Under the pieces are notes generated by a model. It did not search any database, was not told where the DNA came from, and was given only the letters and a program-made list of their open reading frames with translations. A DNA stretch of 64,000 nucleotides from Escherichia coli (GTDB lineage Bacteria; Pseudomonadota; Gammaproteobacteria; Enterobacterales; Enterobacteriaceae), in assembly GCF_044647545.1 (NCBI RefSeq), contig NZ_CP172818.1; one strand, 5' to 3'. The translations under genes were made by a program, and so were the position numbers. Each line of letters begins with the position of its first letter. Position 1 is the stretch's first letter. Below, piece by piece: positions 8,442 to 25,262 of this stretch.

Positions 8442-9362
8442 TTACTCGCCCTTTTTCGCCGCCTGAATATACAGCATTTCCAGCGCCAGCGTCGCCGCAG
8501 CCAGAGCGGTGATTTCCGACTGATCGTATGCCGGAGCCACTTCCACTACGTCCATCCCAACAATGTTGAGATCTTTCAGGCCGCGTACCAGTTTAATAGC
8601 GCGATCGGAGGTCAGGCCGCCAATTACTGGCGTACCTGTTCCCGGCGCGAAAGCAGGATCCAGGCAGTCGATATCAAAGGTCAGGTAAACCGGCATATCA
8701 CCTACAATCTGTTTCACCTGAGCGATAACGTCATCCACGCTGCGATCGTTCACCTGGCAGGCGTCCAGCACGGTAAAACCGTTGTCTTTATCAAACTCGG
8801 TACGAATACCAATCTGCACGGAATGATTCGGGTCGATCAGACCTTCTTTCGGCGCGGTATAGAACATGGTGCCGTGGTCAAATTCACAACCGTTAGCGTA
8901 GGTATCGGTGTGGGCGTCAAAGTGTACCAGCGCCATTTTACCGAAATGCTTCGCATGAGCACGCAGCAGCGGCAGCGTAACAAAGTGGTCACCACCGAAG
9001 GAGAGCATACGCTTACCGGCAGCCAGCAGCTTCTCGGCGTGCGCCTGCAGCTTCTCGCTCATCTCACGGGCATCTCCGAAGGCATATACCAGATCGCCGC
9101 AGTCCACGACGTTCAGGCGCTCACGCATGTCGAAATTCCACGGGAAGCGATTGTGTTCCCAGGCCAGATTCGTCGAAACCTGACGGATCGCTGCCGGACC
9201 GTGGCGACCACCCGCACGACCAGAAGTGGCCATATCGAACGGCACGCCAGTAATCACCCAGTCAGCATCGCTGTCATATGGCTGGAAGTTCATCGGCAGG
9301 CGTAAAAAACCAAAGGCGTTGGAAACCAGTGAGTTATCGTATTGATGACCTAAGGTGCTCAT
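8442..9362 (-). CDS. speB: Agmatinase
   Basis: 306 aa ORF, arginase-family sequence, directly downstream of speA. Confidence 0.95.
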
Positions 9363-9390
9363 GGATGGACTCCTATTACAAAGTCGATAT

Positions 9391-9430
9391 AAAAAAACCC
9401 TTCCGCGTCGTTAGGCCCGACGAGGAAGGG
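9391..9430 (-). terminator. Rho-independent terminator/attenuator between speA and speB
   Basis: Inverted repeat CCCTTCC(G/T)CGTCG with 7 nt loop followed by T7 on the minus strand. Confidence 0.6.
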
Positions 9431-9528
9431 TTGGATTTGCGAAACACAAGTATGCGCTAATTATCGCCTTAAATGAAAAGAGGGCCGCATCAAGGACTAA
9501 CACAGGTCCCATACCACCAAACTCCAAC

Positions 9529-11542
<2,014 letters not shown>

Positions 11543-11550
11543 AGCGAACC

Positions 11551-11682
11551 TCAAATTATTTTATTAAGTGTAAAACAGTTAACGACTATCGCAGCCTGGA
11601 ACTGCGATAACAACCCATAAGCACATGGATTTTCCAGCAGTGAATGCTGACGCTCCAACTGCGCAACCGGTTTCTTTTTCAT
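11551..11682 (-). CDS. yqgB: Small protein YqgB (43 aa) upstream of speA
   Basis: Minus-strand translation [43 protein letters not shown]. Confidence 0.7.
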
Positions 11683-11817
11683 AACATTATTAAGCACATA
11701 ACCGAACGTAAGTGTGACAGTTCGGCGAAACCACGAGAAAACTCTTGTTTTTACAAGAGCGCCCTTGTTCAGTCCTCAGTAACTGTAACCAGCTCTTGAA
11801 TCCTGAGAAGCGCCGAG

Positions 11818-12033
11818 ATGGGTATAACATCGGCAGGTATGCAAAGCAGAGATGCAGAGTGCGGGGAACGAATCTTCACCAGAACGGTGAGACAGGTTAA
11901 GCAGCAGACAACGGTTCATTATTTCGTATCACCTCCACGGCCGCCTGTTAAGACGAACCCACAAGCCAAAACTCTGATTTCAACCCGGCTGGAAGTGGCA
12001 ACACGAAAGAAACGTCGTGTGCTTTTTATTTAA
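11818..12033 (+). CDS. yqgC: Small uncharacterised ORF YqgC (71 aa)
   Basis: ORF in expected position between speA and metK; recognition from memory only. Confidence 0.4.
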
Positions 12034-12296
12034 GCCGCGCGCCGCGTTTTATACCCCACAATGGCAGAAAATTGCAAAAGATAAATACGCAGAATGCCAG
12101 CATTGTCAGGAAAAATTTCCAGCCACGTTTTTAAAAGAATGAGACACGATTCAAAAAAAAGTGGAAATCGGGTGAAGAATTGACCTAAAATAGCCATCCA
12201 GATGTTAATCCATCCATACCGATTAACACTCAGACTGCCAGTGTTTTTAACCTGCAGAGTCGTGGTAGGATCCGCTACCACAGAAAATCCACACAA
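12030..12296 (-). CDS. yqgD: Small uncharacterised ORF, possibly YqgD
   Basis: 88 aa ORF overlapping the metK upstream region; weak. Confidence 0.3.
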
Positions 12297-12336
12297 CAGT
12301 TTGAGCTAACCAAATTCTCTTTAGGTGATATTAAAT

Positions 12337-13491
12337 ATGGCAAAACACCTTTTTACGTCCGAGTCCGTCTCTGAAGGGCATCCTGACAAAATTGCTGACC
12401 AAATCTCTGATGCCGTTTTAGACGCGATCCTCGAACAGGATCCGAAAGCACGCGTTGCTTGCGAAACCTACGTAAAAACCGGCATGGTTTTAGTTGGCGG
12501 CGAAATCACCACCAGCGCCTGGGTAGACATCGAAGAGATCACCCGTAACACCGTTCGCGAAATTGGCTATGTACATTCCGACATGGGCTTTGACGCTAAC
12601 TCCTGTGCGGTTCTGAGCGCTATCGGCAAACAGTCTCCTGACATCAACCAGGGCGTTGACCGTGCCGATCCGCTGGAACAGGGCGCGGGTGACCAGGGTC
12701 TGATGTTTGGCTACGCAACCAATGAAACCGACGTGCTGATGCCAGCGCCTATCACCTATGCACACCGTCTGGTACAGCGTCAGGCTGAAGTGCGTAAAAA
12801 CGGCACTCTGCCGTGGCTGCGCCCGGACGCGAAAAGCCAGGTGACTTTCCAGTATGACGACGGCAAAATCGTTGGTATCGATGCTGTCGTGCTTTCCACT
12901 CAGCACTCTGAAGAAATCGACCAGAAATCGCTGCAAGAAGCGGTAATGGAAGAGATCATCAAGCCGATTCTGCCGGCTGAATGGCTGACTTCTGCCACCA
13001 AATTCTTCATCAACCCGACCGGTCGTTTTGTTATCGGTGGCCCGATGGGTGACTGCGGTCTGACTGGTCGTAAAATTATCGTTGATACCTACGGCGGCAT
13101 GGCACGTCACGGTGGTGGTGCATTCTCTGGTAAAGATCCATCAAAAGTGGACCGTTCCGCAGCGTACGCAGCACGTTATGTCGCGAAAAACATCGTTGCT
13201 GCTGGCCTGGCCGATCGTTGTGAAATTCAGGTTTCCTACGCAATCGGCGTGGCTGAACCGACCTCTATCATGGTGGAAACTTTCGGTACCGAGAAAGTGC
13301 CTTCTGAACAACTGACTCTGCTGGTACGTGAGTTCTTTGACCTGCGTCCATACGGTCTGATTCAGATGCTGGATCTGCTGCACCCGATCTACAAAGAAAC
13401 CGCAGCATACGGTCACTTTGGTCGCGAACATTTCCCGTGGGAAAAAACCGACAAAGCGCAGCTGCTGCGCGATGCTGCCGGTCTGAAGTAA
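12337..13491 (+). CDS. metK: S-adenosylmethionine synthetase
   Basis: Start at [18 protein letters not shown]; 384 aa. Confidence 0.97.
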
Positions 13492-13513
13492 TCTTTCTTC
13501 ACCTGCTTTCAAA

Positions 13514-13542
13514 GGCCAGCCTCGCGCTGGCCTTTTTCTTTT
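13514..13542 (+). terminator. Rho-independent terminator of metK
   Basis: GGCCAGC-CTCGC-GCTGGCC hairpin followed by TTTTTCTTTT. Confidence 0.8.
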
Positions 13543-13828
13543 ACCTCACCGCGGTGGATAGGCGTTCACGCGGCATCCGGCAAAAAGCTGCCCGCACAAT
13601 AACATCATTCTTCCTGAACACGTTTTACCGCAAATTATCATCGCTACTGAAACCGATTACACCAACCACACCAGACAAAGATTTGTAATATTTTCATATT
13701 ATTATTCGGTTTTCACAGTTGTTACATTTCTTTTCAGTAAAGTCTTAATTGCAGATAACAGCGTTTAATCTATGATGATATAACTCAATTATTTTCATGC
13801 ACTTAAATCATAACTAAGATAAATGTTA

Positions 13829-13844
13829 GTGTAAGCGATTACAC
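13829..13844. promoter_or_regulatory. Gal operator-like palindrome (GalR/GalS site) in the galP promoter
   Basis: GTGTAAGCGATTACAC, near-perfect palindrome matching the gal operator pattern. Confidence 0.6.
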
Positions 13845-13847
13845 TGA

Positions 13848-13863
13848 TGTGATTTGCTTCACA
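13848..13863. promoter_or_regulatory. CRP consensus site in the galP promoter
   Basis: TGTGA-TTTGCT-TCACA, full match to TGTGA-N6-TCACA. Confidence 0.6.
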
Positions 13864-13926
13864 TCTTTTTACGTCGTACTCACCTATCTTAATTCACAAT
13901 AAAAAATAACCATATTGGAGGGCATC

Positions 13927-15321
13927 ATGCCTGACGCTAAAAAACAGGGGCGGTCAAACAAGGCAATGACGTTTTTCGTCTGCTTCCTTGCTGCTCTGGC
14001 GGGATTACTCTTTGGCCTGGATATCGGTGTAATTGCTGGCGCACTGCCGTTTATTGCAGATGAATTCCAGATTACTTCGCACACGCAAGAATGGGTCGTA
14101 AGCTCCATGATGTTCGGTGCGGCAGTCGGTGCGGTGGGCAGCGGCTGGCTCTCCTTTAAACTCGGGCGCAAAAAGAGCCTGATGATCGGCGCAATTTTGT
14201 TTGTTGCCGGTTCACTGTTCTCTGCGGCTGCGCCAAACGTTGAAGTACTGATTCTTTCCCGCGTTCTGCTGGGGCTGGCGGTGGGTGTGGCCTCTTATAC
14301 CGCACCACTGTACCTGTCAGAAATTGCGCCGGAAAAAATTCGCGGCAGTATGATCTCGATGTATCAGTTGATGATCACTATCGGGATCCTCGGTGCTTAT
14401 CTTTCTGATACCGCCTTCAGCTACACCGGTGCATGGCGCTGGATGCTGGGTGTGATTATCATCCCGGCAATTTTGCTGCTGATTGGTGTCTTCTTCCTGC
14501 CAGACAGCCCTCGTTGGTTTGCCGCCAAACGCCGTTTTGTTGATGCCGAACGCGTGCTGCTGCGCCTGCGTGACACCAGCGCGGAAGCGAAACGTGAACT
14601 GGATGAAATCCGTGAAAGTTTGCAGGTTAAACAGAGTGGCTGGGCGCTGTTTAAAGAGAACAGCAACTTCCGTCGCGCGGTGTTCCTTGGCGTACTGTTG
14701 CAGGTAATGCAGCAATTCACCGGGATGAACGTCATCATGTATTACGCGCCGAAAATCTTCGAACTGGCGGGTTATACCAACACTACCGAGCAAATGTGGG
14801 GGACGGTGATCGTCGGCCTGACTAACGTACTCGCCACCTTTATCGCAATCGGCCTTGTTGACCGCTGGGGACGTAAACCAACGCTAACGCTGGGCTTCCT
14901 GGTGATGGCTGCTGGCATGGGCGTACTCGGTACAATGATGCATATCGGTATCCACTCTCCGTCGGCGCAGTATTTCGCTATCGCCATGCTGCTGATGTTT
15001 ATTGTCGGTTTTGCCATGAGTGCCGGTCCGCTGATTTGGGTACTGTGCTCCGAAATTCAGCCGCTGAAAGGCCGCGATTTTGGCATCACCTGCTCCACCG
15101 CCACCAACTGGATTGCCAACATGATCGTTGGCGCAACGTTCCTGACCATGCTCAACACGCTGGGTAACGCCAACACCTTCTGGGTGTATGCGGCTCTGAA
15201 CGTACTGTTTATCTTGCTGACATTGTGGCTGGTACCGGAAACCAAACACGTTTCGCTGGAACATATTGAACGTAATCTGATGAAAGGTCGTAAACTGCGC
15301 GAAATCGGCGCTCACGATTAA
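13927..15321 (+). CDS. galP: Galactose:H+ symporter (MFS)
   Basis: Start at [17 protein letters not shown]; 464 aa. Confidence 0.96.
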
Positions 15322-24075: not shown

Positions 24076-25262
24076 TCATTAATGCCGCATGCGGCGTTAA
24101 TCACTTCTATAATAAATATAATTATATATTAAACATATATTAAAATAACACAACAATAATATTCTTCAATCAAAAATAAACAAAAACACACGATGAACCG
24201 AACAACATGCAAAAACAAATCACATCTCAAAAATTTATAACACTCTTCCCCTCCAACAACGAAAACAAAGAAAAATACGTTAAAAAACAAAAAATATCGA
24301 AACAGAAAAACGAAAAAAAAATAAAGTAATGAATCACCACACGAGAACAAGAAAAAAACAACAAAATATATACTAATAACACAGTAGGAAAGGAATAAGA
24401 ATCAACAAAGAAATTTTTACCATCATCAAACGATAACAAACAACCGAAGAGGGAGATAGTTGCCACACCGACACAGAACATCTCTCCACATCACAACAAT
24501 AACAGGTAGCGGAGCACCCCCAATAACCAAAACACAGACCCATACTTGACAACCAGAACAAAAAAACACAACGACAAAAACCAAACAACGAAGAATGAAA
24601 AATGATAAAGAAGAAATTGAATAATTAACACTATCACCCCTACATCAAACTAGAAAAGAAATCGTTGTTAGATATGCGCGGTGTGGTGGTCCTGTGATGC
24701 GCGAACTAGGCGTGACGCCTTTTCTGTCGCCGTCATGCTTGCTCTGGTTGTATGCGTAGTCTGATAAGACGCTCCAAACCACAAAAGCACAGCATCCCAT
24801 TCAGACCAAAGAAGGTTATGATTGCCGGCATTTTCTACCGCTGTCAACGTCTCATCTTGTTATAACTGGATTACTGATACCGCCCTCAAACGTGTTAATT
24901 GTTTTTCCCTACACTGCGCGTTTCTAGCACGCTATTAGCGGGATATGCAAGGGACTAAGAGTCGCGGTAAAAACCGGCATATCAAACGCGGCTACCCGCT
25001 TCAGAAAAAGCAACCTCCAGGCCTAAAGCGTTCGACCTACCAAGTTCTCGTCAAGGCGGCATCGGCGGCATTTTACGCAACGAAGGCCGATCTTCACAAT
25101 TATGATTACCGGGAATAAAATCGCGATTTACCCAAACGATCGAACGGTTACAAATAATTCGCACCGCAAACCAACAATCCAAAAACTAGGATTCAAACCC
25201 ACCAAATAAAAAAAAAAAAAAAAAGGAAAAACAAAAAAAAAAACAACAAAAAAAAAAAAAAG
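24076..25262. other. About 1.2 kb non-coding block with extreme A/C-rich, G/T-poor plus-strand composition, REP-like fragments and a terminal A-rich tract
   Basis: Composition read directly; only low-complexity minus-strand ORFs; ends in A-rich run 25205-25262 abutting the yggM stop. Confidence 0.7.

Follow-up and report, generated by a model that had tools for sequence, protein, structure and literature searches.

The window analysed here, a 64,000-nucleotide (nt) stretch of Escherichia coli DNA (contig NZ_CP172818.1, assembly GCF_044647545.1), contains the divergent genes speA and metK separated by an intergenic region of exactly 794 bases (11543-12336), in which the four short open reading frames (ORFs) yqgB, yqgG, yqgC and yqgD are found. 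All four are known annotations, and yqgB has already been raised in print as an upstream ORF (uORF) of speA. A 1-kb stretch around the locus is matched at 100% identity by many complete E. coli genomes and occurs in 5,425 of 5,426; positions are converted to those of K-12 MG1655 by adding 3,074,369. An earlier note on this DNA placed yqgB (43 codons) directly upstream of speA with its stop within 10 nt of the speA start, which is borne out (TGA 11553-11551, ATG 11542-11540, a gap of 8 nt). The note also had yqgC and yqgD overlapping the metK upstream region on opposite strands. Both indeed exist as ORFs on opposite strands, with a mutual overlap of 4 nt. Of the two, yqgD alone extends into the metK upstream region, ending 56 nt from the metK ATG; yqgC, which runs antisense to the speA leader, stops ~300 nt short of metK. 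A conserved small ORF of the region that the note did not name is yqgG.

Comparison across species indicates that yqgB and yqgG change over evolution in the manner of a translated RNA leader and not as proteins do. The conserved nucleotides of this leader are those of RNA helices, several of which covary. Also new here are a map of the conserved structures, a C-rich tract in yqgG, a family-wide geometry of the yqgB stop and the speA start, and a case against yqgC and yqgD. For the comparison one genome per species was scanned with SpeA; of the 445 speA loci found, the analysis covers 80, from Enterobacteriaceae, and 78 of these extend up to metK, so that the counts below over 79 sequences comprise 78 species and the window. 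The speA-metK distance is 633-1039 bp in all 78 loci, and the interval is conserved in blocks over much of its length.

Reading frames and codon evolution of yqgB and yqgG

The yqgB frame is open in 79 of the 79 sequences, whereas each of the remaining five frames across this interval is open in 0-6 of 79, and retention of the ORF is far above the chance baseline set by composition-matched shuffled sequence (open with p ~0.08 per species). The stop codon lies no more than 11 nt from the speA ATG in every sequence, as a UGA 8 nt before the AUG in 51 and as a UGA 8-11 nt past it in 28, and in the window the TGA overlaps the speA Shine-Dalgarno (SD) sequence (uGAGG). Matches to curated families are strong (Pfam PF11036, 113.3 bits with a cut-off of 24; NCBIfam NF033844, small_YqgB, 90.1 bits with a cut-off of 35). 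A profile search finds YqgB relatives across the genera of the Enterobacteriaceae and elsewhere only two labels that resemble misassignments; a profile was required to reveal this family-wide distribution because a single-sequence protein search is nearly confined to Escherichia and Shigella, with one further partial match labelled Klebsiella.

The substitutions within this well kept frame are not those of a protein under purifying selection, which the family names "acid stress response protein" and "virulence promoting factor" would imply. Entropies at yqgB codon positions 1/2/3 are 0.59/0.69/0.62, without codon periodicity, and the pooled ratio of nonsynonymous to synonymous substitution (dN/dS, Nei-Gojobori) is 0.79 over the whole ORF, 0.98 in the variable codons and 0.23 in the conserved codons. 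In the same genomes speA codons 30-160 give entropies of 0.08/0.02/0.89, a dN/dS of 0.011 and a dS of 0.91, whereas the conserved codons of yqgB have a dS of 0.16 for the same species pairs. Since the conserved yqgB codons are thus frozen at synonymous sites as well, selection appears to act on the open frame and on particular nucleotides and not on the amino-acid sequence. Insertions of 20-128 nt occur at one fixed 3' site (~11572, minus strand) in Kosakonia, some Enterobacter and Atlantibacter (loci L027, L029, L063, L066, L072, L013 and L069); the frame stays open at 55-91 codons, and the inserted sequence is palindromic, an extra hairpin flanked in the DNA by TATACC...GGTATA (in the RNA UAUACC...GGUAUA).

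The yqgB start codon has been detected in vitro by INRI-seq, and yqgB stands among experimentally validated small ORFs (cited through Adams et al. 2021, PMC7815308). The ORF has no obvious SD sequence of its own. Just upstream lies a two-codon mini-ORF, AUG UUA UGA (11679-11687, minus strand), whose stop overlaps the yqgB AUG as AUGA; an AUG is present at the mini-ORF position in 66 of the 79 sequences.

For yqgG the ATG is kept in 78 of 79 sequences and the frame is open in 77 of 79, with an ORF length of 42-55 amino acids (aa) and an invariant GGAGG. YqgG matches Pfam PF23505 with 129.9 bits (cut-off 27) and its ORF is translated; it was found by start-codon ribosome profiling and the SPA-tagged protein was detected (Weaver et al. 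2019). Codon periodicity is again absent (entropies 0.73/0.67/0.77), and the pooled dN/dS is 0.52 for the whole ORF and 0.18 for the conserved 3' part, where dS is 0.28. The body of the ORF (codons 2-33) is rich in C and poor in G (C 32.7%, G 18.6%, C/G 1.79), with C exceeding G in 77 of 79 species. This tract is the sequence-variable part of yqgG, and all remaining segments of the leader have a C/G below 1. Near the yqgG end rare Arg codons are conserved, CGA in 41 of 41 sequences and AGG, AGA or CGG at a second site; these are a lead to, and not evidence for, an arginine or polyamine signal. The alignment of yqgG across species contains no tandem or run of regulatory codons.

Transcript and conserved RNA structure of the speA leader

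Both ORFs lie within the speA 5' untranslated region (UTR), on the same transcript. The "speA 5' UTR" was cloned by Adams et al. 2021 (PMC7815308), who reported Rho-dependent termination on the basis of rhoR66S reporter fusions and northerns, took a northern band as the likely yqgG-yqgB-speAB transcript, and included yqgB-speA in a list of uncharacterised candidate uORF pairs. Their forward cloning primer, GCGCGGCTTAAATAAAAAGC, maps to window position 12040 and the reverse primer to 11544, which defines a leader of ~498 nt, and yqgG and yqgB, contained in the region from 12040 onward, thereby qualify as its uORFs. A predicted sigma-70 promoter, with TTGC and TATAAA conserved over 78 species, is situated inside the yqgD ORF, 7-8 nt upstream of the 5' end of that construct. 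The earlier suggestion that the small ORFs of the region may act as leader or regulatory elements thus fits speA, by way of yqgB together with yqgG, and fails for metK, as discussed below.

The whole E. coli leader has a minimum free energy (MFE) of -177.8 kcal/mol (z -2.88), and its conserved segments fold into a series of discrete domains (Table 1). At the 5' end an anti-SD sequence, CACUUCCA (11997-11990), pairs with the yqgG SD, UGGAGGUG (11938-11931), in an 8-bp helix that is invariant in 40 of 40 sequences and encloses a hairpin with compensatory changes in 5 of 6 pairs. A few nt beyond this helix is the Term-seq 3' end reported at K-12 3086295, window position 11926 (Adams et al. 2021, PMC7815308). 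In the long stem-loop that separates the two ORFs, pairing reaches 99.4% in the top helix, where 5 of 5 pairs show compensatory changes, and the lower helices are invariant.

The five-helix domain within yqgB coincides with the apparent protein motifs of the family: KKPV, QH..LL, GLLS and AIVV are the helices, and the variable residues are the loops. Helix 2 covaries (AU in 41, GC in 14), a change between Gln and Arg codons being matched by a synonymous change of an Ala codon. The hairpin around the speA start codon is 98.7% paired in 53 distinct sequences, where the changes are one-sided and all pair-compatible with no compensatory change. In speA codons 2-20 third positions have an entropy of 0.12 where paired and of 0.70 where unpaired, which explains why synonymous variation is reduced across speA codons 1-29.

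A search of positions 9000-14200 with the Rfam 15 covariance models at E values up to 1 gave no relevant match; a match to a Brucella small RNA model at 13509-13634 is spurious (19 bits, gathering score 229). Within speA a perfect AGGAGG followed by an ATG at codon 27 (11462-11475, minus strand) constitutes the internal start for a shorter cytoplasmic SpeA isoform, a known in-frame start that has been confirmed by INRI-seq. The Rho-associated 3' end at 11485 is just upstream of it.

Table 1. Genes and RNA or promoter features at the speA-metK locus, by window position
Feature	Position	Strand	Details
speB	8442-9362	minus	
speA	9566-11542	minus	
Rho-associated RNA 3' end	11485 (K-12 3085854)	minus	57 nt into speA; Rho score 3.09, "uORF" flag; PMC7815308 supplementary file
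Hairpin around speA start codon	11497-11549	minus	GUUCGCU..CUGACGA (11549-11532) / UCGUCAG..GCGAAC (11512-11497); alignment A1
speA leader (5' UTR)	11543-12040	minus	~498 nt; published cloning primers mapped to the window
yqgB	11551-11682	minus	43 aa
Five-helix RNA domain within yqgB coding sequence	11570-11672	minus	98% of cells paired; alignment A3
Hairpin CCGAAC...GUUCGG upstream of yqgB	11702-11725	minus	94% paired; 4 of 6 pairs compensatory; alignment A2
Long conserved stem-loop between yqgG and yqgB	11728-11770	minus	Alignment A2
yqgG	11776-11919	minus	47 aa; K-12 annotation b4784
C-rich, G-poor yqgG body, candidate rut site	11821-11916	minus	Base composition, codons 2-33
yqgC	11818-12033	plus	71 aa
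5' structured domain	11926-12022	minus	5' stem-loop 12022-11998 and anti-SD:SD helix; alignment A4
yqgD	12030-12281	minus	83 aa
Predicted sigma-70 speA promoter	12048-12077	minus	-35 TTGCAA 12077-12072, 18-nt spacer, -10 TATAAA 12053-12048; read from sequence
Predicted metK promoter/operator block	12186-12236	plus	-10 TAAAAT 12186-12191 (promoter scan); met-box-like repeats 12192-12223
metK	12337-13491	plus	

Possible control of speA by its leader, and alternatives

Maintenance of the two ORFs, the lack of protein-type selection on them, helices that are conserved and covary, the excess of C over G and the position of the yqgB stop relative to the speA start are observed features of the locus. 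The speA side is probably a translated leader that acts in cis, controlling speA by way of Rho and of translational coupling, rather than a group of independent genes for small proteins. In the proposed mechanism transcription from ~12040 would produce the heavily folded ~498-nt 5' UTR with its two translated uORFs, and in the 5' domain the invariant anti-SD on the yqgG SD would set how frequently yqgG is translated. The C-rich yqgG tract may be a Rho-utilisation (rut) site that yqgG translation would mask: whenever the yqgG body is uncovered by ribosomes Rho would load, with termination in the yqgB or early speA region. Ribosomes translating yqgB would pass through the five-helix domain and end at the speA ribosome-binding site or slightly within it, where the terminating ribosome could open the speA AUG hairpin, so that speA initiation is coupled to yqgB and Rho is kept off the speA start. 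A natural guess for the input signal, by analogy with the speF and mdtJI leaders, would be polyamine or arginine status. The transcript, its Rho dependence, the translation of both ORFs and the drop in speA and speB mRNA on deletion of yqgB are taken from the literature; Rho-site masking, coupling and the signal are what we infer.

A number of points weigh against this scheme. A rut site in the yqgG tract is argued from base composition. The folding energy of the speA-start hairpin is unexceptional (z -1.06), and both this hairpin and the anti-SD helix are supported by conservation and pair compatibility because they are too conserved for compensatory changes to occur. The alignments cover one bacterial family of related sequences, so the shuffle statistics overstate their independence. 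Codons 4-27 of yqgG have a dN/dS of 0.64 and not of 1, and tagged YqgB and YqgG accumulate as proteins, which leaves room for a function in trans. Coupling between yqgB and speA would modulate initiation and cannot be obligatory, since speA carries a good GAGG SD of its own and both INRI-seq and Ribo-RET find ribosomes initiating at its annotated start, in vitro and on transcripts along which yqgB has not been translated beforehand.

That YqgB and YqgG are true small proteins acting in trans, in acid stress for instance, and stand upstream of speA merely as operon members is considered unlikely. Such a role has on its side the curated families and their names, including the RefSeq label "acid stress response protein" for YqgB, the detectable tagged proteins, the conservation of the ORFs throughout a bacterial family, and a 2026 study in which deletion of yqgB made Salmonella sensitive to acid and colistin. 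However, in that study speA and speB mRNA, enzyme levels and spermidine were all reduced by the deletion and putrescine or spermidine rescued it, so the phenotype follows the loss of speA/speB, and neither "complement" nor "polar" occurs in its main text; overproduced YqgB induces heat-shock proteins of the aggregation type. The dN/dS of yqgB, close to unity in its variable half, the lack of third-position wobble in either ORF, and the coincidence of YqgB motifs with helices and of variable residues with loops likewise speak against a protein. The acid phenotype of YqgB is said to go back to the small-protein papers of Hemm from 2008 and 2010.

The leader could instead contain a ligand-binding, riboswitch-like sensor of polyamine, agmatine or arginine, chiefly in the five-helix yqgB domain, with the ORFs secondary, although this appears improbable. 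A multi-helix domain with invariant single-stranded nucleotides and a variable-length hairpin at one fixed site is reminiscent of many structured RNAs, the gene context suits feedback control by polyamines, and the leader folds with a z of -2.88. On the other hand, covariation is found in only a few helices, the element is confined to the Enterobacteriaceae, and Rfam supplies no match. Since the reading frames are strictly maintained, translation itself matters, unlike in a pure riboswitch.

Very improbable is a trp-type attenuator in which yqgG is the leader peptide and the ribosome position chooses between an antiterminator and the 11770-11728 hairpin as an intrinsic terminator. A hairpin followed by UUUUCUC 15 nt past the yqgG stop was flagged in a terminator scan (11760-11741), the 11770-11728 hairpin is strongly conserved and covarying, the sequence CAAGAGC inside E. 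coli yqgG is complementary to its 5' arm, and yqgG has conserved rare Arg codons close to its end. The antiterminator was rejected as a conserved feature, with only 75% of cells paired across species and two of its pairs unpaired in 58 of 68 and 28 of 68 sequences. The intrinsic terminator was rejected as well: its U-run is predicted to be paired within the extended conserved stem, and the Term-seq 3' ends listed by Adams et al. 2021 (PMC7815308) include none at the 11770-11728 hairpin. The documented termination in the leader is Rho-dependent, and yqgG lacks a run of regulatory codons.

The cis-acting leader has counterparts in known systems, and on balance the speA leader seems to join the class of uORF- and Rho-controlled leaders of polyamine genes. 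The closest likeness is with orf34/speFL-speF-potE of Salmonella and E. coli, also a polyamine decarboxylase gene with a leader of about 500 nt (516 nt for speF, ~498 nt for speA) and with Arg codons in the conserved part of a short ORF. There, orf34 translation blocks Rho and unfolds a structure that sequesters the ribosome-binding site, a logic shown by experiment for speF and here proposed for speA. The two leaders differ in that speF has one uORF, which ends hundreds of nt upstream, whereas speA has two (47 and 43 codons), of which yqgB ends directly on the speA start; they share no sequence similarity, and the speA leader has no Rfam speF-type element. In the mdtU-mdtJI leader of E. coli, from the same 3'-end study (PMC7815308), a uORF in a polyamine-related operon likewise controls premature Rho termination in response to spermidine. 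However, a conserved C-terminal peptide of MdtU is thought to be important, whereas the substitution pattern of yqgB and yqgG argues against selection at the peptide level. The geometry at speA also resembles termination-reinitiation coupling, the yqgB stop adjoining or passing a speA AUG that is itself in a local hairpin openable by an upstream ribosome; the strong SD of speA and its de novo initiation in vitro are unlike that arrangement.

Among leaders of other genes in Salmonella and E. coli, mgtL-mgtA, corL-corA and tnaC-tnaAB each have a short leader ORF that alters the access of Rho to a C-rich site, alternative RNA folds, or both. Unlike the speA leader, these sense Mg2+/proline or tryptophan through defined arrest or pause codons, and apart from the conserved rare Arg codons no comparable codon signature is evident at speA. 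To our knowledge the feedback of polyamines onto speA expression in enteric bacteria has never been explained mechanistically; a Rho-sensitive structured leader with two uORFs makes that question testable with a handful of point mutations.

Tentatively, and with the odds against it, the cis-acting leader can be taken a step further. The YqgB and YqgG "families" would then be no functional proteins but the translated output of an mRNA sensor, family-specific and multi-domain, for polyamine or arginine status; this sensor would gate arginine decarboxylase by means of the anti-SD, of access for Rho and of initiation coupled to termination. Were this so, the acid-stress, virulence and colistin phenotypes of YqgB, and the work that targets it with drugs, would concern cis effects on speA. 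The phenotypes seen on deleting yqgB, whose product carries acid-stress or virulence annotations and has lately been explored as a drug target, may arise in cis through speA. As a general caution, what is catalogued as a small-protein family could be an RNA element traversed by a reading frame.

The metK side and other features of the window

Conservation of the small ORFs across species, which the earlier note had put forward as a check, separates yqgB from yqgC and yqgD, whose frames are broken or startless outside Escherichia. The bare existence of the latter two is uninformative because ORFs of 40-88 aa abound in all frames of the intergenic region. In most genera yqgC is cut to 2-55 aa, and although YqgC scores 133.9 bits against the Pfam PF17430 model it does not behave as a conserved and expressed coding gene; ribosome density on yqgC was absent and tagged YqgC protein undetected in Weaver et al. 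2019. Outside Escherichia the yqgD start codon is missing or the frame is interrupted at varied positions, within the genus Escherichia sp. E1V33 retains only 43 aa of the ORF, and YqgD has no match in Pfam or NCBIfam. Both are probably incidental ORFs and not real genes, and the analysis supports dropping them from lists of credible genes.

Part of "YqgD" looks conserved because 12186-12236, the block of strongest conservation on the metK side (0.90-0.99), coincides with a predicted metK promoter/operator, and the 3' end of yqgD overlaps the predicted speA promoter. The block contains four degenerate met-box-like repeats (12192-12223) that agree with the consensus at 18 of 32 positions (z 4.4, the second best in the 64-kb window). 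The promoter/operator assignment is made provisionally since the met-box match is not unique and no primary description of the metK promoter was found in the literature. A leader-peptide role for metK is not supported, and yqgD is unsuited to it because it is encoded on the opposite strand from metK; the metK side would thus appear to be promoter/operator only.

At the end of yqgC the plus strand has a terminator-like hairpin with a T-run (12001-12020), which is the speA leader's 5' stem-loop read on the opposite strand, and ExcludonFinder gives yqgG-yqgC as a divergent overlapping transcription pair. An unannotated 46-aa ORF at 11690-11830 (minus strand), with conservation that looks amino-acid-like in a few species, was rejected as nucleotide conservation only; most species, and indeed another E. 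coli, have the frame interrupted at 14-40 aa.

Downstream of speA the speB-speA spacer differs among strains and is 203 bp in the window as compared to 137 bp in K-12. It includes (9476-9564) ~55 nt of sequence and then an uninterrupted run of 35 A, which on the sense strand of speA and speB reads as 35 T immediately past the speA stop; this version of the spacer is covered by 0 of 5,426 complete E. coli genomes. The only other homopolymers of at least 12 nt in the window are A runs of 17 and 14 nt near each other (25208-25224 and 25248-25261). In E. coli FDAARGOS_497 (locus L001, 1-521) a "hypothetical protein" of ~243 aa adjoins speA at the K-12 position of speB, and the spacer sequence is different, which suggests a rearrangement downstream of speA at the level of the strain.

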